Program-made: the position numbers and the translations under genes
DNA from: a virus
Taxonomy: Duplodnaviria > Heunggongvirae > Uroviricota > Caudoviricetes
Reading direction: 5' to 3' (one strand)
Length of the DNA: 24,488 bases
Virus record (IMG/VR): IMGVR_UViG_2579779149_000006
Shown: one piece after another, positions 1-21,146 of the stretch
Position numbering within the stretch: the stretch's first letter is position 1
How the letters are laid out: each line of letters starts with the position of its first letter
Notes under the pieces: model-generated
Told to the model about the DNA's origin: nothing
Databases searched by the model: none
Seen by the model: the letters and a program-made list of their open reading frames with translations, nothing else

Positions 1-636
1 TTATTTTCGTAAAAAAATCGACGCCCTATCCGGGTTTACTTTACATAGATGAGAAAGATATAGCGCCCTTCGATTAAATTTGCCTTCAGTAAGGTCATCA
101 ATGTTTTTCCTGAATGGGTACTTAATCCGTGCAGCTATGTCAAAGTCACTAATGCTTGCATGAGCTTTGGTAAGTTTAGCTATCCCATAAGTGCCATAGC
201 CAAAGTAGCAACAGGATATATATGCTATGCAGATATCATCTGCTGTTGTTGCTTTCCTGATAAGAATGGCTAATATTTGCTCTCTTATTTTTCTTCGAAC
301 TGTTTTCTCATATCTCTTAGTTATTGTTCTAACAAACTGTTGGTCTATAGTACTTGCGCCTTGATGAATGTTTTTAAATAATCTCAGATATATAGTTCTT
401 AAAATAGCAACTGGATCAACTCCCCTGTGTAATAGTTGCCGATGATCCTCAGCCACTCTTAATATATCAATTAAAGATAAAGATATAGATCTTTCACTTA
501 TCGAACTAAGCCTTATATAATCAATACATTTATAATAATCTTCCATAATACTTTTAACCCTGAATTTAAAAACCATTTCTGCCAATAGCAAGTATGGCAA
601 TGACAGTAAGGTAATCAAAAAGCGCTTCGCTGCCAT
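1..636 (-). CDS. GT51-family (monofunctional peptidoglycan glycosyltransferase-like) membrane-anchored protein, ~211 aa
   Basis: ORF 1..672 with stop TAA at 1-3. The track start at 672 is a TTG; first in-frame ATG is at 634-636 with AGGAG 3 nt upstream. N-terminal hydrophobic anchor RFLITLLSLPYLLLA. Motifs AEDHRQLLHRGVD, GASTIDQQ, RKIREQ and YFGYGTYG match GT51 motifs (EDxxFxxHxG, GxSTIxQQ, RKxxE, glycine-rich YFG). AT-rich, unlike the flanking P2 genes. Confidence 0.6.
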   Translation of the reverse strand: MAAKRFLITLLSLPYLLLAEMVFKFRVKSIMEDYYKCIDYIRLSSISERSISLSLIDILRVAEDHRQLLHRGVDPVAILRTIYLRLFKNIHQGASTIDQQFVRTITKRYEKTVRRKIREQILAILIRKATTADDICIAYISCCYFGYGTYGIAKLTKAHASISDFDIAARIKYPFRKNIDDLTEGKFNRRALYLSHLCKVNPDRASIFLRK

Positions 637-1163
637 TTCACGTCTCCTGATGTATCTGCAGCGGTGGACCAAAATTTGCCATGCATAGCATCTGCATTCA
701 CCTTTTGGAAATACAGCAAAATGGTATAACTCCTTAACTCACCTTCCATTTTTATATTCAATGAGGCATGATTTTTCCTTAAGTAATTTCTCTTAATCAC
801 CCCTCGAACCTCTCCAATACTTCTATGCTTACCAGTGTATGGTCTTATATTATTATTGTTTTCAACGTCTTTTGTTTTCTCAATAAACCCTTCAATATTA
901 TTGTTGTCACATATTAAAGTCAGTGTATAAAACGTTTTTAAATTCAAGTAAGGATTATACGCAGATTTTAGTGTTTTACATTCAACTTCAAAGACGCCCG
1001 AAAAATTTGGTGGCGGTTTAATATATTCTTTGAATATAAAAATCAATACAGCCGCAATAAGAGTAGCAACAGCACCACTTAAGATTTGATTTGTGGAAAT
1101 AAAGGTTAGAGATGGCTCAAGCCATTCCCAAAATATGTTGAAAAAATCAGTAAATTTATTCAT
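615..1163 (-). CDS. hypothetical single-pass membrane protein, 182 aa, no recognisable domain
   Basis: ATG at 1161-1163, stop TGA at 615-617. Predicted TM helix ILSGAVATLIAAVLIFIF near the N-terminus. The 3' end overlaps the downstream GT51-like gene by 22 nt (translational coupling). AT-rich, with a 280-bp AT-rich leader at 1164-1441. Confidence 0.5.
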   Translation of the reverse strand: MNKFTDFFNIFWEWLEPSLTFISTNQILSGAVATLIAAVLIFIFKEYIKPPPNFSGVFEVECKTLKSAYNPYLNLKTFYTLTLICDNNNIEGFIEKTKDVENNNNIRPYTGKHRSIGEVRGVIKRNYLRKNHASLNIKMEGELRSYTILLYFQKVNADAMHGKFWSTAADTSGDVKWQRSAF

Positions 1164-1664
1164 AAATTTCTTTTGATAGTATGTTTTTTATATGATGTTA
1201 CATTTTTGAGAAAAAAGCAACTTCGCCGATTAAAAACTATCTCGCTGGAATTTATGGGCATCATGTTATGAATACATTCTTATCCCATAGGGAATAAAAC
1301 CCTATCTATAGAATAAAAATCCAAATTTTATCTTAATAAATCAGATAAAAGATACTTATACTACAAAGGTACTTGTGTAAGATCAAACTTTTAATCCTAT
1401 AAGTTATAGATTGAAGCAACTGTGACTTATAGTGCGCACACTTAAGAATCTCCGATGACGATGGTAGCAGGAGACAACTTTTGACAACTCACTCCTATTA
1501 CCAACTTACTGACTTGCTCCGCGTTGAGAGATTTATAGTTATGCCAGCACTGTCCGCTTCTGGCACATTGCGGAAGGGCTAACGGCCCGGAGTAAGTGAG
1601 TAACGGATGTTTGCAAGCACTCTTACTGCTGACAATGATCGCATCCAAGATAAAATAGGTGGTG

Positions 1665-2180
1665 TCAAGGTACAGGTTCACCAATATAAGTGTGTGTGCA
1701 GCAACGACATGTCACCTTAACGTCATCTCTTGTGATTGAAAGGTTTACCTGTTGCAGAATTCCATTCTCATCAACAAACAGACCTGGGTAAAAACTGCTT
1801 TCACCAATGCAGACTAAATCCCTTCGCTGATGCTCATGTAGCGCGACCAACCAGAATACCGGCTCGGTGGTATCAAGACGTCCACATACTTCGCTGAATA
1901 TTTCATTCCACGGCTTGCCAATCTCTTTGATCAGAAAATAAAACAACGGTGTGTAGTCTCGGCCACGCTTCTGTCTGCTATGCATTGTCTCGCGCTTTAC
2001 CAGTAGCTCATCTCCGACTTTTTTGCGATTTCGTTCCCACCGATACTCAGCACCCGGATTATTAGAATGGTGCCGCGTCGTCGTGTTGACGCTGCGATAT
2101 AGTTTACGGGACTTATTCTGCTGATGAATACGCATAGCTCGATCTCGTACATCCTTTCTTTTGTGGGCCAGTAGCCCCAT
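1665..2180 (-). CDS. hypothetical protein, 171 aa (uncertain; possibly a decayed gene)
   Basis: ATG at 2178-2180 with AAGG 5 nt upstream. Basic N-terminus and a CxCC cluster at the C-terminus. The 1442-2356 interval is open in three overlapping minus-strand frames, so the coding assignment is ambiguous. Confidence 0.3.
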   Translation of the reverse strand: MGLLAHKRKDVRDRAMRIHQQNKSRKLYRSVNTTTRHHSNNPGAEYRWERNRKKVGDELLVKRETMHSRQKRGRDYTPLFYFLIKEIGKPWNEIFSEVCGRLDTTEPVFWLVALHEHQRRDLVCIGESSFYPGLFVDENGILQQVNLSITRDDVKVTCRCCTHTYIGEPVP

Positions 2181-2366
2181 TCAGACCTTGTGTTACTGTA
2201 TAAAAAATGAACACCCTTAAAGGCTGTATCATTCTGCTCAAATACCATCCTACTGACAACTACCAAAGGTCGGATTCTGGCACGGAGCGGACAATCAAGT
2301 AGAACTGAAGGCCCGCTATGTGCGAAAACAGACAGACACAGATTGATCACAAACATACCTGAACCA

Positions 2367-3296
2367 TCAGGATTTTATATCCTTGTGTGGCTCTAATCCT
2401 TCAGAAAGGACTTTATCAAATGCAGCATATTGCCTTTGTAATTTACTTTCACATTCATACAGACTCTTTAAACTAACATCATCCATAGATTGAAAGAGTC
2501 TTTTGTTATCAACTAAATAGGAGTATGCATTAAAAATAGAAACATCCATTATATCTTTCAGTTCTTCATCAGATAGTTTAGTCTTTTTACTTAAATGCTT
2601 AATCACATGTGACTGCAATGCATTTGCGCGAACCATGGCGGGAGGATATTTGCTATTCTTCCCTTCCAATTTACATAGAAAATTAAAGAAAAAAAATATT
2701 GATGTTAAAGATAAACTAACAAGTGTTTTCTCTTCTATTTTTTTCTCCGGGGCCTTTTTTATTGTATTTAAGACGACATCTGCAACAAAGTATGCTGAGA
2801 ATACATCTGCATCATACTCCATTAATGTTTTAATCTGATCTTCACTAAAATCTTCATCGACTACATTGTACCCCATTGAATAAACTTGGTAATCACCAAT
2901 CAGGTTTATTTCTTTACTTTTGGCTAATGATAAGTGTCCACGAGCGACATGTCCAAGTTCATGACCGAAAATATGGTGCCAAATAAAGACACACCCTAAC
3001 GCAACTGGAGCTTCCTTTTCTTTCAAGTCAGGGTATTCTCTCATGAAGAATTCTATATTTTCAGAAAGAATGTCAAACGTTATTGGTATCAACCCACTCA
3101 ATAAAATAATATGGAAATTATTGTCTTTTTTTTGTGCGTGAGCATTAAGGTTAAAATCGTCCTTAATGTGCAGAGCTATTTTTTTACCATCCTCTTCAAT
3201 AGCGGAGTTTATCTCTATCAATCCTTTTTTGAAGGTATCGTAAACAGGCAAGAAAAAACCACTTTCTATTTTCGAAATTTCATCACGGGTCATCAT
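2367..3296 (-). CDS. M78 (ImmA/IrrE-like, DUF955) zinc-metallopeptidase-domain protein, 309 aa
   Basis: Tandem ATG at 3291-3296 with AAGGTGG SD 5 nt upstream. HExxH motif in FGHELGHVARGH plus a downstream acidic/aromatic motif EYDADVFSAYFV, resembling the ImmA/IrrE third ligand region. Strongly AT-rich, with a poly-A/T tract inside the gene. Confidence 0.6.
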   Translation of the reverse strand: MMTRDEISKIESGFFLPVYDTFKKGLIEINSAIEEDGKKIALHIKDDFNLNAHAQKKDNNFHIILLSGLIPITFDILSENIEFFMREYPDLKEKEAPVALGCVFIWHHIFGHELGHVARGHLSLAKSKEINLIGDYQVYSMGYNVVDEDFSEDQIKTLMEYDADVFSAYFVADVVLNTIKKAPEKKIEEKTLVSLSLTSIFFFFNFLCKLEGKNSKYPPAMVRANALQSHVIKHLSKKTKLSDEELKDIMDVSIFNAYSYLVDNKRLFQSMDDVSLKSLYECESKLQRQYAAFDKVLSEGLEPHKDIKS

Positions 3297-3495
3297 ATTT
3301 CCACCTTTAACATGAAATCTAATTCTAATTGATAGGTCTACTTAGTTTCGCTCATTGTACTATTTTATTAAAGTGGGTTGAAGGTTACATTTTTATATAG
3401 CATGTCTACTGTCCCTTTGTGGCACAGAGCGGACTGTCAGATTAGTTTTTACTCTGTGCCATAGATGAGTAATCTCACACCAGATCTAATACGAT

Positions 3496-4074
3496 TTATT
3501 GTGGCATTTCAGGCCATTCTATATCCGGAGCATCTTCCGGCTGAACGCGATTCAGTAGCACACGGTATTTTTTCCAGTGTGTCAGACTTAACTTTTCTTC
3601 CTCGGTAGCCATATCTAAATCGACAGCATCCTGCAGCGTGGCAATAATTTCACCTGCATATGCAATCAGCTCTTTCTTCTGAGAGTCAGCCGCTCTGACA
3701 AGCGCATCACGCTCTGCATTCTCATCATTCACCCACGCATTTCCGTTCCATTTCTGATAATCCCCATCCGGGGAAATGGCTGTCACGTCTGGAGGTAATG
3801 CGCCAAGTTCAGAAATATAAATGGCTGCTCCTGTTTTTGTTTCATAGACAGTCTTTCCACGATGGTCTTCCACCAGATCCCATTTCATTTCATCTGCATT
3901 GAAAACGGCGGCAAAACCCACCGGAATATCTGGAGGTGCAATGTCTGTACTGTTTGCAGGAAGACCTGTATGCGGCGGAATATATGCGTCACTTTCGCCA
4001 ATAAATTCATTGGTTCCATCAAGTAAATTGAAAACGCGGATAGTTTGTGTCTCTGCACTCATTCTGAAAGTCAT
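3496..4074 (-). CDS. G: tail fibre assembly chaperone (P2 gpG-like), 192 aa
   Basis: ATG at 4072-4074 overlaps the H stop (TAATG). Lies immediately downstream of the tail fibre gene. Sequence has typical Tfa features (N-terminal MxxxMSAET... and WNGNAWV). Confidence 0.85.
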
Positions 4075-5849
4075 TATGCCAGCCTCACAATATAGTTATA
4101 CGCAACGTTTTTTACGGTGTTCTCTGAATTACCTGTGGCACTTACAGTGACGGTATGACTATGCGCGCCAATCGCAATGGAATGGCTGTGAGCACCAATG
4201 CCAACCGTGTGATTATGCTGACCAATGTCGACTGTATGGGCGTGTGCTCCCGCAGAGCTTGACACCTGGTTGGTTCCTGATACCTGTACGCGTTGTTTAC
4301 CCCCGATGGAGTCACCACCGTAACGACCACCGACAGTGTGTGTATGCGCTCCCGTATTGTTTGTCGTTTTTGTGCCGTGGTTAAACGTGCTGACCGTTTT
4401 TGTCCCGTAATCAAACGAACTGGTTGTTTTCGTCCCTAAATCCGTACTGGATGCACTGGCACTGTGGGTATGTGATTTAATTCCGTCCTGTTCCTGTGAT
4501 AATACGGCGCGACCACTGGCGGGTTTGCCCTTGATTGTCCAGCCGCGCATATCTGGAATCACCCCTGACGGATAAGCTACTGCAAGCAGGGGATAGGCTG
4601 CTTTATCAAAAGTCTGCCCCTGCATCAGGGCATAGCCTGTAGGTACTGAATCAGAAGGCCACGGGATTGGAGCACCTACCGGAAAGTTGTTGTACCCGTC
4701 ATGATGAATCAACTTCCAGCCTTTAAAAACACCTGCGCAAACTGCCGCAAAACCGATTACATCTCCATTAAAATCAATGCCAATAACAGTATTGTATCCC
4801 TGAGTATTGCTGTGTGCAGAGTTGATGTAGTGCTTCCAGGTGTGTCCTCCAGGCATTCCATTCTTTGCTGAGGAAGCATTAAAAAAGCCACCACGCGTAC
4901 GTAAATCAGTAGCAATATCACTTATATTTTCGGCGTACTCATTTAATCCCGCTCCTTTAGGTACTCGCTTGTTTGCATTGTCATTAGCAGCTTTCACTGC
5001 TTTCGGAGTCGCGGCAAGCGTTTCAGAATCGCTGTTGGTGGCACTACTTAGCTGGACAAGCCCTTTTCGTGCCGTGGTGGCGTCCTGTGCGGTGTATTTG
5101 CCATTAGCAAGGTCATATGCTGTCTTAACCGCCTTTGGCGTTGCTGCGAGCGTCTCAGATTCGCTGTTGGTGGCACTACTTAGCTGAACAAGACCTTTTC
5201 GCCCCGTGCTGGCGTCCTGAGCGGTATATTTTCCGTTAGCAAGGTCATACGCTGCCTTAACCGCCTTCGGCGTTGCGGCCAGCGTTTCAGATTCACTATT
5301 GGTCGCGCTGCTTAACTGAGTAAAACCTTTTGCAGTCAGTGAGGCGTCCGGATGGCGTCGTGACTGTTCGTGCTCTGCAATTTTGTCATCAACGTAATCC
5401 TGCGTCGCCATCACCGTTGTGGTGTCGATGGTCAGATCCACTGAGGCCACACTGCTGACGATAATGACCATGCGGCAGGTCTGCGAACGTCCTGAGCCTT
5501 CGGCAAGGGCAGGCTTATAACTTTCGGCCATGTTCGCCACGGCAATTAACGCACCGGTATCATCGTACAGACCAAGTTCACGCATCCAGAAACCGCCCAC
5601 CTCCGGCGGGATGACCAGCTCTGCGATAATATAATTACTGTGTCGATTGTCCTGACTGATTTTATTCAGGGCATGTCGCCAGACCTCATTAACAAGTTTT
5701 GTCTGTCCGGCATCCGGCACCGGCAATTGACCGCCACCGTCCCCGACGGCCATCGTGGTAATGTTGACCTTCCTGCCTCCCGGTGCAGTCGCCGCTGCCA
5801 GCTTTGCTGCACCGGCGGTAGTGATAACGGTTTGGAACTTTACGCTCAT
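4074..5849 (-). CDS. H: tail fibre protein (P2 gpH-like), 591 aa
   Basis: ATG at 5847-5849. Internal 44-aa repeats ([36 protein letters not shown]). C-terminal block GAPIPWPSD...[32 protein letters not shown] and repeated HxH motifs (GAHAHTV, GAHSHS), ending NYIVRLA, as in P2 H. Confidence 0.9.
4965..5330 (-). repeat. about 132-bp tandem repeat (about 2.75 copies) inside the tail fibre gene, encoding the 44-aa fibre repeat
   Basis: Protein repeats at residues about 174-217, 218-261 and 262-295 of H. Near-identical DNA blocks are visible around 5040, 5172 and 5304. Confidence 0.7.
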
Positions 5850-5859
5850 TATTCCTCAC

Positions 5860-6390
5860 TTATCCTGGGTAAACCGTAATAACATCGCCGTCATAAGCCA
5901 CACCACCGGCAAACAGATAACCGGGGATGTCCTGGGTAATATTCAGACCAATAAGGTGACGACTTGCAGGTTTGGCATCGGCAATCAGCCGTTCCATTTC
6001 CAGATACATCTCCTCCGTGATGCCGCTTTCCAGTACGCCGATATCAAGCCGGAAGGTGCCGGGCGGGTCGCTGTTTTCCCACCACTCCGTCACGTTGATG
6101 AGATAGCCGAGCGGCTCCACCACACGGCGAATCGCACCAATAGTGCCCTTATGGCAGTGAATGAAATACGCATCGCGGATAACGGCGCGTTTTGTCGCTT
6201 CCGGCCACTTTTCATCCCAGCGGTCAACCGAAAATGACCACGCCAGCCACGGCAGCAGATTTGCCGGACAGGTGTCCGGGTTCCACAGCTCACGAATACT
6301 GACCGGCGTTTTTTCAATTTCCGCACAGGCTTTTGCGGCGGCAACTTCAAGCGGTGATGAGCCTGTCGGCAGCAGTCGCGAATCATTCAT
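5860..6390 (-). CDS. I: baseplate/tail protein (P2 gpI-like), 176 aa
   Basis: ATG at 6388-6390, stop TAA at 5860-5862. Size and position (between J and H) match P2 I. Confidence 0.85.
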   Translation of the reverse strand: MNDSRLLPTGSSPLEVAAAKACAEIEKTPVSIRELWNPDTCPANLLPWLAWSFSVDRWDEKWPEATKRAVIRDAYFIHCHKGTIGAIRRVVEPLGYLINVTEWWENSDPPGTFRLDIGVLESGITEEMYLEMERLIADAKPASRHLIGLNITQDIPGYLFAGGVAYDGDVITVYPG

Positions 6391-14715: not shown

Positions 14716-16488
14716 ATGACCATCACCACAGACACCACTCTTTTACACGACCCGCGTCGTCAGGCGGCGCTGCTGTACTGGCAGGGGTTTTCCGTGCCGC
14801 AGATTGCCGCCATGTTGCAGATGAAACGCCCGACGGTGCAGAGCTGGAAACAGCGCGACGGCTGGGACAGCGTTGCCCCCATCAGCCGTGTCGAAATGAG
14901 TCTGGAAGCGCGGCTGACCCAGCTCATCATCAAACCGCAGAAAACCGGCGGTGACTTCAAGGAAATTGACCTGCTGGGACGCCAGATTGAACGACTGGCA
15001 CGGGTCAACCGCTACAGTCAGACCGGCAACGAGGCAGACCTTAATCCGAACGTCGCTAACCGCAACAAAGGCGGGCGCCGCAAACCGAAAAAGAATTTTT
15101 TCAGTGACGAGGCCATCGAAAAGCTGGAGCAGATTTTCTTTGAGCAGTCTTTCGACTATCAGTTGCACTGGTATCGCGCCGGGCTTGAGCACCGCATCCG
15201 CGATATCCTGAAATCCCGCCAGATTGGCGCGACGTTTTATTTTTCCCGCGAGGCGCTGCTGCGCGCCCTGAAAACCGGTCATAACCAGATTTTTCTGTCG
15301 GCCAGTAAAACGCAGGCGTATGTGTTCCGCGAATACATCATCGCCTTTGCCCGGCTGGTTGACGTTGACCTGACCGGTGACCCGATTGTCCTGGGCAATA
15401 ACGGCGCAAAACTGATTTTTCTCGGCACCAACTCCAACACCGCACAGAGCCATAACGGCGACCTGTACGTCGATGAGATTTTCTGGATCCCGAATTTTCA
15501 GGTACTGCGTAAGGTGGCATCAGGTATGGCCTCACAGAGTCACCTGCGCTCGACCTATTTCTCCACCCCGTCCACGCTGGCGCACGACGCCTACCCGTTC
15601 TGGTCGGGTGAACTGTTCAACCGGGGACGCGCCAGCGCCGCCGAACGCGTGGAAATCGACGTCAGTCATAACGCCCTTGCCGGTGGGCTTCTCTGTGCGG
15701 ACGGCCAGTGGCGGCAGATTGTCACCATTGAGGACGCGCTGAAAGGCGGCTGCACGCTGTTCGACATTGAGCAGCTCAAACGTGAAAACAGCGCCGACGA
15801 TTTTAAAAACCTGTTCATGTGTGAATTTGTTGACGACAAAGCGTCGGTGTTCCCGTTCGAGGAGCTGCAACGCTGCATGGTCGATACGCTGGAAGAATGG
15901 GAAGACTATGCACCGTTTGCCGCAAATCCGTTCGGCTCCCGCCCGGTATGGATTGGTTACGACCCGTCACACCGTGGCGACAGCGCCGGATGCGTGGTGC
16001 TGGCACCGCCGGTGGTGGCCGGTGGCAAATTCAGGATCCTTGAGCGTCACCAGTGGAAAGGCATGGACTTTGCCACCCAGGCAGAATCCATCCGCAAACT
16101 CACCGAAAAATATAACGTTGAATACATCGGGATTGATGCCACCGGCCTCGGTGTCGGTGTGTTCCAGCTCGTGCGCTCGTTCTATCCCGCCGCGCGCGAT
16201 ATCCGCTACACGCCGGAAATGAAAACCGCAATGGTGCTCAAGGCAAAAGACGTTATCCGCCGTGGCTGTCTGGAATATGACGTCAGCGCCACCGACATCA
16301 CCAGCTCGTTTATGGCTATCCGCAAGACCATGACCAGCAGCGGACGCAGCGCCACCTATGAGGCCAGCCGCAGCGAGGAAGCCAGCCACGCCGACCTCGC
16401 CTGGGCGACCATGCACGCCCTGTTAAATGAGCCACTCACCGCCGGTATCAGCACTCCGCTGACATCCACCATTCTGGAGTTTTACTGA
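14716..16488 (+). CDS. P: terminase large (ATPase) subunit P, 590 aa
   Basis: Start taken at MTITTDTT (internal ATG of ORF 14686..16488), giving 590 aa, as P2 P. Stop overlaps the Q start (TGATG). Confidence 0.9.
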   Translation: MTITTDTTLLHDPRRQAALLYWQGFSVPQIAAMLQMKRPTVQSWKQRDGWDSVAPISRVEMSLEARLTQLIIKPQKTGGDFKEIDLLGRQIERLARVNRYSQTGNEADLNPNVANRNKGGRRKPKKNFFSDEAIEKLEQIFFEQSFDYQLHWYRAGLEHRIRDILKSRQIGATFYFSREALLRALKTGHNQIFLSASKTQAYVFREYIIAFARLVDVDLTGDPIVLGNNGAKLIFLGTNSNTAQSHNGDLYVDEIFWIPNFQVLRKVASGMASQSHLRSTYFSTPSTLAHDAYPFWSGELFNRGRASAAERVEIDVSHNALAGGLLCADGQWRQIVTIEDALKGGCTLFDIEQLKRENSADDFKNLFMCEFVDDKASVFPFEELQRCMVDTLEEWEDYAPFAANPFGSRPVWIGYDPSHRGDSAGCVVLAPPVVAGGKFRILERHQWKGMDFATQAESIRKLTEKYNVEYIGIDATGLGVGVFQLVRSFYPAARDIRYTPEMKTAMVLKAKDVIRRGCLEYDVSATDITSSFMAIRKTMTSSGRSATYEASRSEEASHADLAWATMHALLNEPLTAGISTPLTSTILEFY

Positions 16489-17522
16489 TGAGCAAGAAAA
16501 AAGGGAAAACACCGCAACCTGCGGCAAAAACAATGACCGCCAGCGCCCCGAAAATGGAGGCATTCACCTTTGGCGAGCCGGTGCCGGTACTCGACCGCCG
16601 TGATATTCTGGATTACGTCGAGTGCATCAGTAACGGCAGATGGTATGAGCCGCCGGTCAGCTTTACCGGTCTGGCGAAAAGCCTGCGTGCTGCCGTGCAT
16701 CACAGCTCGCCGATTTACGTTAAACGCAATATTCTGGCTTCAACGTTTATTCCGCATCCGTGGCTTTCTCAGCAGGATTTCAGCCGCTTTGTGCTGGATT
16801 TTCTGGTGTTCGGCAATGCGTTTCTGGAAAAGCGTTACAGCACCACCGGCAAGGTCATCAGACTGGAAACCTCACCGGCAAAATATACCCGCCGTGGCGT
16901 GGAGGAGGATGTTTACTGGTGGGTGCCTTCCTTCAACGAGCCGACAGCCTTCGCACCTGGCTCCGTGTTTCATCTGCTGGAGCCGGATATTAATCAGGAG
17001 CTGTACGGCCTGCCGGAATATCTGAGCGCCCTTAATTCTGCCTGGCTGAATGAGTCAGCCACGCTGTTCCGCCGCAAGTATTACGAAAACGGCGCACATG
17101 CCGGATACATCATGTACGTCACCGATGCCGTGCAGGACCGCAACGATATCGAAATGCTTCGCGAAAACATGGTTAAGTCGAAAGGCCGCAATAACTTTAA
17201 AAATCTGTTTCTCTATGCACCACAGGGGAAAGCCGACGGCATTAAAATTATCCCGCTCAGTGAAGTGGCAACGAAGGACGATTTTTTTAATATCAAAAAA
17301 GCCAGTGCCGCTGACCTGCTGGACGCACACCGCATCCCCTTTCAGTTGATGGGTGGCAAGCCGGAGAACGTCGGGTCGCTGGGTGATATTGAGAAAGTGG
17401 CAAAGGTCTTTGTCCGCAATGAGCTTATCCCGTTACAGGACAGGATTCGGGAAATAAACGGCTGGCTTGGTCAGGAAGTCATCCGCTTTAAAAACTACTC
17501 ACTGGACACTGACAACGGCTGA
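16488..17522 (+). CDS. Q: portal (capsid vertex) protein Q, 344 aa
   Basis: ATG at 16488-16490. 344 aa, as P2 Q. Followed by a terminator and the cos region. Confidence 0.9.
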   Translation: MSKKKGKTPQPAAKTMTASAPKMEAFTFGEPVPVLDRRDILDYVECISNGRWYEPPVSFTGLAKSLRAAVHHSSPIYVKRNILASTFIPHPWLSQQDFSRFVLDFLVFGNAFLEKRYSTTGKVIRLETSPAKYTRRGVEEDVYWWVPSFNEPTAFAPGSVFHLLEPDINQELYGLPEYLSALNSAWLNESATLFRRKYYENGAHAGYIMYVTDAVQDRNDIEMLRENMVKSKGRNNFKNLFLYAPQGKADGIKIIPLSEVATKDDFFNIKKASAADLLDAHRIPFQLMGGKPENVGSLGDIEKVAKVFVRNELIPLQDRIREINGWLGQEVIRFKNYSLDTDNG

Positions 17523-17526
17523 ACAT

Positions 17527-17549
17527 CGCCGCCTGCGGGCGGCTTTTTT
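17527..17549 (+). terminator. rho-independent terminator after Q
   Basis: GC-rich hairpin GCCGCC-tgcg-GGCGGC followed by TTTTTT, immediately 3' of the Q stop. Confidence 0.6.
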
Positions 17550-17691
17550 ACACCCCGTCATCACGCACTCACACGCTCACCACCGCACAAAACACCCCGC
17601 AGACACACCAACGCCTCAACTGGCAGACTAAACGCCATCACGACGCGCTCAGACGCTGAAAAAATAAAATCAGCACCACCGCCAGCGCGCA

Positions 17692-17710
17692 GTGCTTTCC
17701 CCGCCTCGCC
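17692..17710. other. cos cohesive-end sequence (19-mer)
   Basis: GTGCTTTCCCCGCCTCGCC is the reverse complement of GGCGAGGCGGGGAAAGCAC, which I recall as the P2/186 19-nt cohesive end. It sits 170 bp past the portal gene, where P2 cos is expected. The match is from memory, not a database check. Confidence 0.55.
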
Positions 17711-17994
17711 CGCCCGCTTCACGTGGCGGTTTTAATGCAGTTGCATAGATACTATGGATCCGCACCAGTCCTGACCGCACGCAGCCTGAACGGACATCCC
17801 CAGCGCATGCAAAAACATTCACTTGTTGCATGCATAGCTTTTTAAGTACGCCATACCGCAACTGTACATTTTTAAGCAATTGGCAACTTTAAAAAATTTA
17901 CATTGCTTTCAAGACCTTATCATCCGTAGTCTCTGTTTTTTACTTTGAGCTACATCAATAAAATCTCAAACATGTTTAATGCAAAGCCCTTGTT

Positions 17995-18048
17995 ACACAA
18001 CATAGAATGTATGTCTAGAAACAACGACATACTATATGTTGTGTTTTT
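17995..18048 (+). terminator. long imperfect AT-rich hairpin followed by a T-run (terminator-like or structured RNA 3' end)
   Basis: Arms ACACAACATA (17995-18004) and TATGTC (18010-18015) pair with GACATA (18026-18031) and TATGTTGTGT (18035-18044); loop 18016-18025; followed by TTTT at 18045-18048. Confidence 0.3.
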
Positions 18049-18188
18049 CCGGCTCTCTGTTCGGTGATATGCCAAATCACTTTGCGTTTAAACAGAGCAT
18101 TATTTCAGGGCAAGACTTCGCTCAAAAGTCATTCCACCTAAGAAGCGCATATACCGGTGGAAGTTGCCCTCTACTTACAGGAGGCAAT

Positions 18189-18302
18189 ATGAAGAAATGC
18201 TATTACTGCATTCTCGTTCTGGCCCTCTTTGGCTATCCAAACGGTAGTCCGAGTGGTTTGTCAGTAAACGTCAGTAATATCAATGTCAGCATTATGCTTT
18301 AA
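18189..18302 (+). CDS. candidate small protein, 37 aa (MKKCYYCILVLALFGYPNGSPSGLSVNVSNINVSIML)
   Basis: ATG at 18189 preceded by a consensus AGGAGG (18179-18184, 4-nt spacer). Signal-peptide-like N-terminus. Stop followed within 12 nt by a strong terminator. The longer 88-aa ORF from 18036 begins on a non-ATG codon. Confidence 0.3.
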   Translation: MKKCYYCILVLALFGYPNGSPSGLSVNVSNINVSIML

Positions 18303-18314
18303 TATGCTTCAAAC

Positions 18315-18344
18315 AAAAAAACCACCTGCCAGGGTGGTTTTTTT
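18315..18344. terminator. bidirectional rho-independent terminator
   Basis: AAAAAAA-CCACCT-gcca-GGGTGG-TTTTTTT: a GC stem flanked by a 7-A run and a 7-T run. It can terminate the plus-strand small ORF and the leftward early operon coming out of A. Confidence 0.7.
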
Positions 18345-18604
18345 GCGCCCATCATCAATACGATGAAAGACTGACAAGACTTCGCTCAAGACGAATTATG
18401 CGTCGACATAAGGTTACCCGCAATGATTTTATTAGACTAAATGGATGGCCTTTTATGACCCGGATCAAACGGCTGTCCTTACCGACATGCTAGTCACTCA
18501 ATAGCATTTAGCCTTCTAATTCAGCATGCTATTGACCTTCTGCTGCCCCATAACTGCTCCGCATAAGCCATTCAATGCCATATCAAATCACGTTGTGTTT
18601 TTAC

Positions 18605-20881
18605 TCAAATGGGTAACGAGAACCCCGGCCACTCATCAGCAACCGGATACGTGAATTTTTTCCCGTCATAATTTACGGTCGCGCCACGCGCCAGCGCCTC
18701 AAGCTCCCATCGTTGCGGCCTGATACCGTTCTGAGCGAGGTCAACGCGGATACGGGTAATTTGCAATCGTTCAGACCTGGTCAGTCTGGCAGATGGTGCA
18801 ATTTCATGCGGTTTTAACGGGATTCCGTTTCTTTGCTGACGATTTGGTGTTCTCAGTCCGTGTTTTAATGCGCCCCTGAGCACCATCACGACCTCCGGGT
18901 CACTCCATTCGATAACACCGTCATCTACCAGATTAAGCACTGCTGCGGCGTGCTCAGAAGGTGTAGGAGCCGGTAACGAAGTATCACCACCGGTGAGCTT
19001 TCCACAGTTATTGACAGGACTCCGAGGCGCGGCGATGCCGCTTTTTAAAGTCAAAGGCTCAACGACCGGCACTTTCGGCACAATGCGCCAGTCCGTGGTT
19101 CTGGTGATATGAATATGACGCGCGCCGAGATGCGGTGCGTAAATGCCGACCACTCTCTCGACTTCTTCCTCGTACTCGTTAACGTCATCCGACGGGCTAC
19201 GGGCAACCCTGACAGTCTGACAATCGCGCGGGACATTTGCCCCACCCTGCGCGCTGATATACAACGCAAAATCACCACTGTCTGCGGCGGCGCGTGCAGC
19301 CTCGACGCGTTCGTCAAACTCATCAGCAATGCTGACGCCGCGAGGCAGTTTGCGTAGTTCACGGTAAGCCCCCATTGTCGGCAGGCCAACCGTTTTAAAT
19401 TGTGGGATACGCCACGTTGACGCCCATGCGGTAACAGCCGCAGCAGTGTCTTTCAGCGGTCTGCCGGTATCGTTATCGAGCTGACCATCCAGTGCATAGC
19501 CATCGATGTTTTTTGAGATGTATTTCGCGATATATCCCGCAGCACCGCCCCGGTTAAGGTGTTTTGCCTGAAAACGGTTTCGCGCGGCTCCTCTTTCGTC
19601 GCCATCCTCTTTGAGCGCATAACGACGCATGATTTCAATAATCTGGTTACGCTGGCGTGGATTACAAAAAAGCATCATATGCCAGTGCGGCGTTCCGTCG
19701 TGGTGTGGCTCGACGACACGCAAACCGTAGACCTGTAAATCATTATCCTTGAATGCCGTGCGCATCAGGCTCCAGATGCGGCAGAGATAACGCTGCGCAT
19801 CCTTTGGATTAAATGCCTCATCGTTCCAGCCGTGATTAAGCTGAACGGTTTTACTTTCGCCTTTTCTGACCTGGCGTGTCGGGTGATACTTTGACGGCGC
19901 GGTCAGCGTGATAAACATCCCCACATCACCCTCTGCGGCGGCGTAACGCTCAATACCGGCAATGGTGTTCATCAGCTCCATCCGGCGAATTTCAGGATTA
20001 GAAATACTGCCCATCACCTTACTGATAAGGTCGATGCGCTCGCCGGTTTCCCTGTTTTCAAGGTCACACGATTTAAGAAATTCCAGATTTGCCTGGCGGC
20101 GCGCACGCACATCACGAATGGCATGTTTACTGGCATAAGGAGAACGGTCTTTATTGACCTCCCCGACAGCAATCAGTAACGCCTCATGCCAGCGCATACG
20201 CTGGCCTTTAAGCTGATGAGTCCACCACTCATCGTTAAACAGACGGGCAATGGCAGAATATGCCTGCCTCGTGGTCATCTGTCCTTTACGGTATTTTTTC
20301 CAGTAGAGCGGGGAAATATTGAAAGCACGTGCAGCGCCAGCAACATGACCATACAGGTGAGCCTGCGCCTCATCCGTAAACAGCGATTCTTTTTCGCCAT
20401 GCGCATCCACCCAGGCATCGCAGAGTTCCTCATACATCATGAAAAGCTGCGATGAGATACGGGCTGCAAATTTTTTCAGCTCCTTGTCATTCATCCCCGG
20501 CAGACGCGCATAATGGTCACGCTCTGCCAGAAACAGCAACGACGCGTCGGTGTTCATTTCATGGCGCTGATTCACACGCTCAATGCGCGGCCATAAACGA
20601 CGCTGAAAAGTGGATGTGAGGAAATAAAACCCGTGCACCGGGCTTTTATTGCGCCGGATGTAGTCATAGCGTGAAGTAAACAGCGAGCGCAAAAAGTAAG
20701 GCAGGCGGTTAATCGTGGATAAAACACCTTGCACCTGACGCATCTCGTCACGTGTAAGGGGTCTTTCGCGCCCGACGGCCTCGCGTGGCGCGTTCCATGC
20801 ATAAGCACCGGTAAACGCCTTACCGGTGCCTGCAGCAAATGCTGAAGGAGGGACAAAACGCCCGGAGGCTTTAACGGCCAT
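18605..20881 (-). CDS. A: replication initiation protein A (rolling-circle HUH endonuclease), about 758 aa
   Basis: Start taken at ATG 20879-20881 (MAVKASGRF...); the track start at 20923 is TTG. HUH-type motif GTPHWHMMLF and a tyrosine pair AGYIAKYISK. Length close to P2 A (761 aa). Confidence 0.9.
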   Translation of the reverse strand: MAVKASGRFVPPSAFAAGTGKAFTGAYAWNAPREAVGRERPLTRDEMRQVQGVLSTINRLPYFLRSLFTSRYDYIRRNKSPVHGFYFLTSTFQRRLWPRIERVNQRHEMNTDASLLFLAERDHYARLPGMNDKELKKFAARISSQLFMMYEELCDAWVDAHGEKESLFTDEAQAHLYGHVAGAARAFNISPLYWKKYRKGQMTTRQAYSAIARLFNDEWWTHQLKGQRMRWHEALLIAVGEVNKDRSPYASKHAIRDVRARRQANLEFLKSCDLENRETGERIDLISKVMGSISNPEIRRMELMNTIAGIERYAAAEGDVGMFITLTAPSKYHPTRQVRKGESKTVQLNHGWNDEAFNPKDAQRYLCRIWSLMRTAFKDNDLQVYGLRVVEPHHDGTPHWHMMLFCNPRQRNQIIEIMRRYALKEDGDERGAARNRFQAKHLNRGGAAGYIAKYISKNIDGYALDGQLDNDTGRPLKDTAAAVTAWASTWRIPQFKTVGLPTMGAYRELRKLPRGVSIADEFDERVEAARAAADSGDFALYISAQGGANVPRDCQTVRVARSPSDDVNEYEEEVERVVGIYAPHLGARHIHITRTTDWRIVPKVPVVEPLTLKSGIAAPRSPVNNCGKLTGGDTSLPAPTPSEHAAAVLNLVDDGVIEWSDPEVVMVLRGALKHGLRTPNRQQRNGIPLKPHEIAPSARLTRSERLQITRIRVDLAQNGIRPQRWELEALARGATVNYDGKKFTYPVADEWPGFSLPI

Positions 20882-21146
20882 ATGAGCCAAAAGCCTCTGA
20901 ACAACGCCTGCTGAGTTGCTCAACCTGCGCGTTTAAATCAGCAAAAGACTTTGCGCTTCCGGTCAGAATATCGTGATGCATCAGGCCGGAAACGAGCTGG
21001 CTTAATTTCGGATAATAACCAACCACCGCCAGCCATTCCTGACCGGCGTTTTTACCGCTTTCCGCTCTCTTTTTCTCGTGGAGAATAAACTGAAAGCTGT
21101 CACTGGTAACGACATAACGTTCGCCAATTTCAATACGAATACTCAT
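20871..21146 (-). CDS. small early protein (P2 orf83 position), 91 aa
   Basis: ATG at 21144-21146. Overlaps the A start by 11 nt and the upstream gene stop. Call based on synteny. Confidence 0.55.
   Translation of the reverse strand: MSIRIEIGERYVVTSDSFQFILHEKKRAESGKNAGQEWLAVVGYYPKLSQLVSGLMHHDILTGSAKSFADLNAQVEQLSRRCSEAFGSYGR

Follow-up and report, generated by a model that had tools for sequence, protein, structure and literature searches.

The Q–A intergenic region of a P2-like prophage

We analysed a stretch of DNA of 24,488 nucleotides (nt), referred to here as the window (IMG/VR virus record IMGVR_UViG_2579779149_000006, one strand), which represents a P2-like (Peduovirus) prophage of Escherichia coli. 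A pair of exact 15-nt direct repeats in this window surrounds a small open reading frame (ORF) and a bidirectional intrinsic terminator, and the module to which the repeats belong is the subject of this work. It lies between the portal gene Q (16488–17522, plus strand) and the replication endonuclease gene A (18605–20923, minus strand), in an intergenic region of 1082 base pairs (bp) that is 100% identical to that of strain CE0011b. The Q–A interval is a cos-proximal hotspot for cargo and defence genes, which is occupied by tin and old in P2 and by many defence systems in its relatives (PMC9122126). Only the cos-side part of the interval (approximately 17523–17746) is common to P2-like prophages. 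The segment from approximately 17840 to 18604 is specific cargo. Of the 5426 complete E. coli genomes, about 150 (approximately 3%) carry the module, and the cargo also occurs in a few phage records. The module itself spans about 590 bp (approximately 17890–18480), and the copy in E. coli W (NC_017664) is identical to the one in the window. For the E. coli matches listed, RefSeq annotates no feature beneath the module.

The 15-mer CAAGACTTCGCTCAA is present on the plus strand at 18111–18125 (copy 1) and 18375–18389 (copy 2), and no further match to it was found in the window even when two mismatches were allowed. As the original prediction had stated, the two copies are exact and bracket an ORF led by a Shine-Dalgarno (SD) sequence as well as the terminator; the intervening 249 bp contain the SD sequence GGAGG (18180–18184), an ORF of 37 codons (18189–18302) and the terminator hairpin (18314–18345). 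The prediction had also put the chance expectation of such a match at roughly 0.3 for the whole window, and this estimate was borne out, as 70 of 300 dinucleotide shuffles of the window contained some exact 15-mer direct repeat. An exact 15-mer repeat spaced by no more than 500 bp occurred in 4 of the 300. Judged inside the window, the repeat is suggestive, and the chance figures do not decide its origin.

Diverged copies of the module and the conserved repeat core

The encoded peptide is too short for protein searches, so homologues were sought at the DNA level; a protein search with the X-padded peptide returned only two near-identical proteins. The first set of relatives consisted of E. coli prophages that were about 88% identical to the window. 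The repeat core did not vary in this set, and these prophages were uninformative for co-variation for that reason. Informative diverged lineages came from a plasmid hit of the single-copy junction query described below and from scans in which the terminator sequence, a pattern that excludes the repeat, was used to find further modules. Plasmid pJ53-KPC_Vir (L036, Klebsiella-type) carries a far more diverged copy of the whole module, distant from phage genes. The PLSDB database contained 416 plasmids with the module, mostly large conjugative IncF plasmids of Klebsiella, the other hosts being Salmonella, Enterobacter, Serratia, Leclercia and Citrobacter. The terminator-pattern scans added genomes of Leclercia, Citrobacter and Enterobacter and 36 metagenome contigs, bringing the total to 43 unique full modules.

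When the 330 nt preceding the terminator were compared with the 120 nt following it, the longest word in common was the repeat in nearly all modules, and the distances were fixed. The conserved unit differs slightly from the 15-mer. The invariant core is the 13-mer CAAGACTTCGCTC at 18111–18123 and 18375–18387, and the two trailing A residues of the 15-mer are shared between the copies in the window allele only. The 13-nt core of copy 1 was either invariant or changed together with that of copy 2.

The peptide gene

The ORF (18189–18302, plus strand; 37 codons and a stop codon) encodes a predicted single-pass hydrophobic peptide, MKKCYYCILVLALFGYPNGSPSGLSVNVSNINVSIML, which is a putative toxin. 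Its frame, start, stop and length (37 or 39 codons) were kept in the 43 unique modules down to 60% nucleotide identity, and the variable columns numbered 22, 13 and 33 at codon positions 1, 2 and 3, respectively. Peptides of the family have a basic N-terminus, a hydrophobic core (C-I-L-V-L-x-L-F-G-Y) and a polar tail of alternating residues. The family thus falls among the small hydrophobic proteins of fewer than about 60 amino acids (aa) that are found in type I toxin–antitoxin systems.

Searches of Pfam, NCBIfam and PADLOC gave no family match, and none of the NCBIfam and Pfam toxin families matched when 11 members were compared with them; PHROG gave one meaningless match (E = 0.34). In Rfam, searched at E ≤ 10, all matches were below threshold and owed to the terminator (RNAI, Phe_leader, OrzO-P, rseX and others); they were not treated as meaningful. 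An 88-codon ORF starting at 18036 was rejected as a gene; it is not conserved, and relatives have an in-frame TAG right after copy 1.

The predicted peptide mRNA has an nrdDG-like promoter and a structured leader

The predicted promoter of the small ORF (17890–18016, plus strand) is a homologue of the host nrdDG promoter, and the promoter region as a whole (17890–18045) can be described as a paralogue of it. Positions 17890–17990 are about 80% identical over 101 nt to the treC–nrdD intergenic region, which is present in all 5426 E. coli genomes. The promoter comprises an A/T-rich UP-like stretch (17890–17902), an FNR-2-like box TTGAGCTACATCAA (17945–17958), an FNR-1-like box TTAATGCAAAGCCC (17976–17989) and the −10 element TAGAAT (18003–18008); from this geometry and that of the nrdDG promoter, transcription would start at about 18016. 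In the nrdDG promoter the FNR sites are centred at −64.5 and −33.5, and the FNR-like boxes of the module have the same centre-to-centre distance of 31 bp as those of K-12. NrdR-box-like palindromes are also present in the module promoter. NrdR box 1 of the plasmid lineages (CACTATATATAGAAC) is an almost exact copy of the K-12 box and overlaps FNR-1, while this box is degenerate in the window allele; an NrdR box 1 that overlaps an FNR site has been described for nrdDG (PMC2892513). The definitions of both kinds of box, with a second NrdR box about 31 bp further downstream in an nrdDG-type promoter, are those of PMC2892513 and Roca 2008. Because the plasmid lineages keep the nrdDG-type promoter, it appears to be an ancestral part of the module, with putative regulation by FNR and NrdR.

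The predicted mRNA is about 330 nt long. The 5′ untranslated region (UTR) would account for about 173 nt of it, and the hairpin at 18314–18345 would mark the 3′ end of the transcript. RNAalifold analysis of 12 lineages identified two hairpins in the leader. Hairpin 1 (18055–18097) pairs CUCUGUU (18055–18061) with AACAGAG (18091–18097) and, further inside, GGUGAU (18063–18068) with AUCACU (18076–18081); most of its pairs showed compensatory changes. Hairpin 2 (18132–18162) pairs UUCCACC (18132–18138) with GGUGGAA (18156–18162), and its compensatory changes include UCCGCC/GGCGGA in other alleles. The two hairpins together contained 11 compensated pairs. Copy 1 of the repeat sits between them and is largely unpaired in the consensus fold. 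At 18109–18125 it forms the predicted target of a small RNA (sRNA) read from the opposite strand, with a functional stretch GGCAAGACUUCGCUC at 18109–18123 that lies 65–78 nt 5′ of the AUG.

The last structured element of the leader (18164–18187) consists of an anti-SD sequence, UUGCCCUC (18164–18171), and the SD region, GGAGGCAA (18180–18187). The pairs flanking the SD sequence co-vary, being UGCC/GGCA in the window and CGCC/GGCG in the plasmids. The energy required to open the segment from the SD sequence to the AUG was 4.5–15.8 kcal/mol in 12 of 12 lineages, and in each of them RNA structure is predicted to sequester the translation initiation region. A 30-nt imperfect direct repeat (18060–18089 and 18571–18600, 73%) was considered and set aside as probably due to chance, since its similarity drops in other alleles. 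One of its copies falls in the 5′ UTR hairpin and the other right before the stop codon of the gene A product (gpA).

A predicted sRNA starts at copy 2 of the repeat

A putative sigma-70-type promoter was identified on the minus strand (18423–18395), with −35 element TTGCGG (18423–18418), a 17-nt spacer, −10 element CATAAT (18400–18395) and a 7-nt discriminator (18394–18388). In 19 unique sequences GCATAATT was invariant and the spacing was constant at 17 or 18 nt, with 16 of the 17 spacer columns and 6 of the 7 discriminator columns variable. Conservation restarted exactly at the eighth base after the −10 element, a G at 18387 that is the predicted +1 nucleotide. A promoter that drives a transcript beginning with GAGCGAAGUCUUG, to which copy 2 is the reverse complement, would be expected to show such a pattern. 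The core of copy 2 (18375–18387, within 18375–18389) would thus be the template for the first nucleotides of the RNA.

The predicted sRNA, a putative antitoxin of about 75 nt (18312–18387, minus strand), would consist of a 5′ seed GAGCGAAGUCUUG(UC), stem-loop 1 (18347–18371), an A-rich linker, the terminator hairpin and a U tail. Its minimum free energy was −28.8 kcal/mol (z = −4.4), and nucleotides 1–16 were unpaired in the RNAalifold consensus. The sequence of stem-loop 1 differs in each lineage while its pairing is kept, six pairs having changed on both sides. The terminator (18314–18345), which has perfect 13-nt arms flanked by runs of A and T, is predicted to be common to the peptide mRNA and the sRNA. 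It was identical but for one loop base in eight loci (E. coli prophages and four plasmids). These eight loci were found without the terminator as a search pattern; the later scans required it and so add no evidence for its conservation.

The stretch from the gpA stop codon (18605) to the shared hairpin yielded no site that resembles a terminator and has a convincing T tail. Read-through from the early operon could therefore also supply antisense RNA during lytic growth, although this is speculative. Upstream of the sRNA −35 element, at 18430–18470, three short blocks (TTTATTAG, TTATGAC and ATCAA on the plus strand) are conserved in lineages that range from E. coli prophages to Salmonella plasmids, and these blocks may serve the sRNA promoter as an UP element or as the site of a regulator.

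The predicted sRNA seed and the leader co-vary

The predicted sRNA and the leader are complementary over the core, and the pairing potential extends two nucleotides further upstream, with GG at 18109–18110 opposite U and C of the minus-strand RNA. Most lineages (clade A) have CAAGACTTCGCTC in both copies. In a deep clade (clade B), to which a Salmonella plasmid, Leclercia and three contigs from metagenomes belong, both copies read TAAGGCTTTGCTC. This amounts to three double-sided substitutions, and the sequences flanking the clade-B copies are heavily diverged. A change of A to G confined to copy 1 was found in two separate branches, the L044-type, which is nested among Klebsiella plasmid alleles, and L080. 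This change places a G of the mRNA opposite a U of the sRNA, a wobble pair. The wobble is kept only when copy 1 is read from the plus strand and copy 2 from the minus strand; the reverse assignment would yield a C·A mismatch. The position immediately 5′ of the core occurs in G-C, G·U and A-U states.

Co-variation was counted on a chimeric alignment of the 12 distinct lineages. The 15 core pairs were essentially always formed, with a single terminal mismatch in one allele, and four pairs had double-sided changes. None of 500 shuffles reached the observed covariation score, and 91% of the cells were paired in the proposed register, compared to 34–50% in slid registers. All three clade-B substitutions are transitions on the mRNA side that are wobble-compatible with the ancestral sRNA. 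The duplex energy of a clade-B sRNA on a clade-A target was −13 to −17 kcal/mol, whereas cognate pairs had −28 to −33 kcal/mol. RNAduplex predictions with the full sRNA and the full UTR were set aside, as they produced inflated long-range duplexes.

From these comparisons we conclude that complementarity between the 5′ end of the predicted sRNA and the leader has been under selection. The duplex of 13–17 bp corresponds to the sRNA–mRNA base pairing of type I systems, on evolutionary rather than biochemical evidence. Judging from the geometry, the complementarity takes the form of a direct repeat in the DNA because the two RNAs come from opposite strands. The complementarities of istR-1/tisB, orzO/zorO and timR/timP likewise appear as direct repeats in DNA.

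A module resembling type I toxin–antitoxin systems

The most likely explanation for these results, and one that we consider probable, is that an sRNA seed and the mRNA site it targets have left the repeats as their signature in the DNA, within a module resembling a type I toxin–antitoxin system. The existence of an RNA-pairing unit is well supported by the sequence comparisons. On the plus strand, the nrdDG-like promoter would give rise to the mRNA of about 330 nt with its structured leader and the 37-aa hydrophobic peptide. On the minus strand, the sigma-70-type promoter would produce the sRNA of about 75 nt, extending from approximately 18387 to the same hairpin. Nucleotides 1 to 13–17 of the sRNA would pair with GGCAAGACUUCGCUC in the 5′ UTR, with the ribosome-binding site (RBS) locked in structure. 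The sRNA might then repress translation by occupying an upstream standby or entry region for the ribosome, or by forming a substrate for RNase III; this mode of action has been described for tisB/istR-1 and proposed for zorO/orzO (PMC3919570). The peptide would act as a membrane toxin, and the module may stabilize plasmids or exclude phages, both in the P2 gpA–gpQ hotspot and on plasmids. Where the ORF has been replaced by other cargo (L035, see below), copy 2 and the sRNA promoter have decayed, which we count in favour of this interpretation.

Several points weigh against it. That the peptide is toxic and that the sRNA represses its synthesis are predictions, as are the start sites of both RNAs and the existence of the sRNA itself, whose 5′ end was deduced from promoter geometry and conservation. 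The −35 element TTGCGG is weak, matching at 3 of 6 positions, and the sRNA promoter was absent from the output of a generic promoter scan. The three double changes are confined to one clade and possibly represent a single historical episode, and co-varying DNA copies could in principle stem from a shared DNA-binding factor or from gene conversion. The C-terminal half of the peptide is polar and beta-like (SVNVSNINV), unlike the charged tail of many type I toxins. An uncultured Enterobacter metagenome-assembled genome (L040, terminator match at 4621–4655) contains an orphan sRNA-like element, with the clade-B seed GGTAAGGCTTTGCTC and a −10-like sequence, that has no peptide ORF or copy 1 upstream. 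Finally, a structural model of the putative repression step did not hold up across lineages. Blocking the target in the window allele raised the opening energy from 6.4 to 11.4 kcal/mol, and we considered an ‘anti-anti-SD switch’ in which the 5′ end of the target pairs with the anti-SD sequence until displaced by the sRNA. This switch fits the window allele; its register and energetics fail in other lineages, so that it is not general.

A more specific and in our view unlikely proposal is that the module is a new family of type I toxin–antitoxin system whose toxin gene captured the host nrdDG promoter, such that FNR (anaerobiosis) and NrdR (ATP/dATP balance) would gate its expression. In the P2 gpA–gpQ defence hotspot and on resistance plasmids of Klebsiella, the module could then sense the nucleotide pool and bring about abortive infection or addiction. 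Toxin mRNA would outrun the short sRNA upon infection or when the replicon is lost, and in the lytic cycle of P2, read-through of the gpA early transcript would supply extra antisense RNA and keep the toxin silent.

In either form, the type I-like interpretation replaces a 15-bp repeat of ambiguous meaning by two genes that have escaped genome annotation and that can be put to the test. If the peptide is toxic, the module would be a minimal cargo of the P2 hotspot and an additional stabilization or phage-exclusion determinant of clinically important plasmids; many of the large conjugative Klebsiella plasmids that carry it (hundreds) also bear resistance genes. The layout is instructive, since a convergent sRNA that shares the terminator of its target would nevertheless use a seed at its 5′ end to act on the 5′ UTR. 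The natural series of A-U, G·U and G-C pairs provides a clean example of seed–target co-evolution. The borrowed nrdDG-type promoter would make a mobile toxin responsive to oxygen and to the nucleotide supply of the cell, and no such connection was found in the literature searched. No prior description of the peptide or seed sequences, or of a type I toxin tied to NrdR or to Klebsiella plasmids, was found in the literature, although this does not prove that none exists. The module, which is carried by P2-type prophages and large Klebsiella plasmids, is apparently undescribed.

Alternative explanations of the repeats

The alternative that survives best, although we consider it unlikely, accepts the RNA pairing and does away with the toxin. 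An ordinary regulatory sRNA, or the 3′ UTR end of the gpA transcript, would tune a benign membrane protein in anaerobiosis or nucleotide stress, perhaps together with other host targets. The absence of a convincing terminator between the gpA stop codon and the hairpin is compatible with this idea, as early read-through could make the antisense RNA, and the nrdDG-like promoter suggests conditional physiological expression. The polar C-terminal half of the peptide is atypical of a toxin. Moreover, endogenous levels of some type I-like peptides are non-toxic, and deletion of timR permits growth in the case of TimP (PMC7667032). Against this stand the tight packaging of the two genes and their carriage on plasmids and in a prophage defence hotspot, which are typical of toxin–antitoxin pairs. 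The module is also found near an annotated type I toxin gene, dinQ, its RBS is predicted to be sequestered, and the sRNA gene decays once the ORF is lost, features that are likewise typical of such pairs.

A less probable explanation treats the copies as two DNA operators, which would co-evolve because a single DNA-binding protein of host or phage recognizes both; one operator would lie in the transcribed leader and the other where the minus-strand promoter begins. The P2 C repressor binds direct repeats, and repeated operators typically look like these 13-mers, which are conserved, identical and directly oriented. Copy 2 overlaps the +1 position of a promoter, which is a classical position for a repressor, and a shift in the specificity of the factor would also be expected to change the copies in concert. 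However, the module encodes no DNA-binding protein, and it moves among E. coli prophages and plasmids of Klebsiella, Salmonella and Leclercia, such that the partner would have to be a host factor that changes in step. A spacing of 264 bp that places one of the sites near position +95 of a transcript does not resemble an operator arrangement. In addition, the A-to-G change in one copy, seen in two branches, breaks the identity of the sites while keeping the RNA pairing; the clade-B substitutions are all wobble-compatible transitions; and the seed lies in the single-stranded 5′ end of a well-formed sRNA. The original prediction had offered a pair of regulatory sites as one possibility. This was correct in spirit as far as regulation is concerned, but the evidence favours an RNA seed and an RNA target over two DNA sites.

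Least tenable of all is the other possibility raised by the prediction, that the 15-mers are a target-site duplication or recombination sites left when a mini-cassette of ORF and terminator was inserted into the phage backbone; this we regard as very improbable and already largely refuted. Exact bracketing of the ORF and terminator by the repeats and the location in a known cargo-exchange hotspot had made it plausible. A search of related prophages for a single-copy empty site, which the prediction had proposed, was carried out with a synthetic single-copy junction as the query against all E. coli genomes. Of the 150 full-length hits, 60 rows were sampled, and each full-length hit among them was a two-piece match spanning 574 bp, i.e. 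a filled site; no single-copy empty site was found there. Both copies and the interval were also kept in three diverged alleles (about 87% identity) and in 25 unique versions from viral contigs. As the prediction had anticipated for a wrong footprint hypothesis, the repeat is part of a longer conserved backbone. Both copies are always present, on plasmids as well. Target duplications differ with each insertion event, whereas this repeat is conserved or changes in concert on plasmids, in other genera and in the two modules of a single contig. Transcription of the small ORF would begin at a promoter upstream of copy 1, and that of the minus-strand RNA at one downstream of copy 2; because both promoters are outside the interval, the repeats bound neither a self-contained unit nor a functional cassette. 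One-sided change was found only in the form that retains the RNA wobble pair.

The remaining observation in favour of a footprint comes from E. coli O157:H16 98-3133 (L035) and the other genomes of its type, 12 in all, in which different cargo is present and homology to the module begins roughly inside copy 2, indicating a breakpoint near one copy. In this locus a 537-aa hypothetical gene replaces the peptide gene, and copy 2 and the −10 and −35 elements of the sRNA promoter are decayed. The homologous segment (2001–2194) is a gpA-proximal remnant.

Comparison with known type I systems

The systems closest to the module by function are zorO/orzO, tisB/istR-1, shoB/ohsC, dinQ/agrB and timP/timR, in all of which an sRNA of limited complementarity acts on a long 5′ UTR. 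The module is set apart from them by its convergent gene order with a common terminator, its nrdDG-type promoter and the lack of a detectable sequence relation.

The zorO/orzO system of E. coli O157:H7 (and its relative zorP/orzP) resembles the module in its small hydrophobic peptide, its 5′ UTR of about 180 nt and the pairing of the sRNA 5′ end far upstream of the start codon. In zorO the pairing occurs 73–91 nt upstream of the AUG; the complementarity is 18 nt, of which 15 continuous nucleotides are enough for repression (PMC3919570). The corresponding values for the module are a 13-nt core that extends up to 17 nt, at 65–78 nt, and both systems contain a short direct repeat in the DNA. Unlike the module, in which the sRNA gene is downstream, convergent and ends at a terminator common to both RNAs, orzO is located upstream of zorO and is divergent. 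The two systems share no sequence similarity, and the toxin promoter of the module is of the nrdDG type. The Rfam family OrzO-P (RF02083) scored only 21.3 bits on the plus strand, over the terminator, which is below the cut-off of 60, and the module was not assigned to that family.

For tisB/istR-1, and likewise for shoB/ohsC and dinQ/agrB, the predicted combination of a sequestered RBS and an accessible upstream target in the module fits the known logic. In tisB the RBS is sequestered and the sRNA binds an upstream single-stranded standby site, the duplex being a substrate for RNase III (PMC3919570); a standby mechanism in the module would follow by analogy. These three systems are chromosomal, divergent and under SOS control through LexA, whereas the module is carried by prophages and plasmids, is convergent and has an nrdDG-like promoter.

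The timP/timR pair (ryfA/ryfB) also encodes a peptide with an N-terminal hydrophobic segment and an sRNA that acts on the 5′ UTR, in which the complementary sequence is followed by an intrinsic terminator. TimP has about 38–41 aa, and its ORF starts about 145 nt into the mRNA (PMC7667032). The N-termini are alike (MKIRCFCIVLIV in TimP and MKKCYYCILVLA in the module peptide), but homology of the two peptides is not supported, as the hhalign probability was 10% over 12 residues. Rfam family RF00126 (ryfA) gave no match to the module even at E ≤ 10. Moreover, timR lies upstream and is divergent, whereas the sRNA gene of the module is downstream and convergent, and timPR belongs to the chromosomal core, where sseA and sseB flank it.

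Convergent genes whose RNAs overlap at their 3′ ends are known from txpA/ratA and bsrG/SR4, which are located on prophage-like elements of Bacillus subtilis. In these pairs, which are named RNase III substrates (PMC3919570), the long 3′ overlap is the main interaction; in the module the RNAs would overlap by the terminator of about 32 nt, and a trans-type seed would act on the 5′ UTR. The ralR/ralA system of the rac prophage is more distant, as RalR is a DNase rather than a small hydrophobic peptide, and its sequences and layout are unrelated to those of the module.

Variation around the module and other repeats in the window

The module copy of pJ53-KPC_Vir (L036, 818–955) is flanked by insertion sequence (IS) elements, and a type I toxin gene annotated as dinQ-type is found at a distance of about 1 kb; this neighbourhood suggests a cluster of small toxin modules on Klebsiella plasmids. 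Metagenome contig Ga0268256_1001162 (L065) contains two complete modules about 3 kb apart, with terminator matches at 3411–3440 and 6331–6360. One of these has the G·U pair in copy 1 and the other is perfectly paired; their sRNA seeds are identical, so that cross-talk would be possible. In the prophages, the space between cos and the module is variable (position 17838 of the window). The window allele lacks about 100 bp that strain Ecol_542 has, and phages P2DC1 and MET_P1 (L001 and L002, 615–1130) have two extra minus-strand genes at this place, one of them encoding 161 aa. The module thus forms a fixed gpA-proximal block that additional cargo joins on the cos side.

Besides CAAGACTTCGCTCAA, the window contains three direct repeats of at least 15 nt. 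Two of these have copies about 15–17 kb apart, a 17-nt repeat at 3562–3578 and 20288–20304 and a 15-nt repeat at 6299–6313 and 21039–21053, and their number exceeds the chance expectation of about 0.3 for the window. The third is an exact 26-nt repeat at 5029–5054 and 5161–5186, within a minus-strand ORF of 591 aa (4074–5849). A 14-nt repeat at 5104 and 5236 has the same spacing of 132 bp, which suggests a tandem repeat of 44 codons in a large tail-fibre-like gene.

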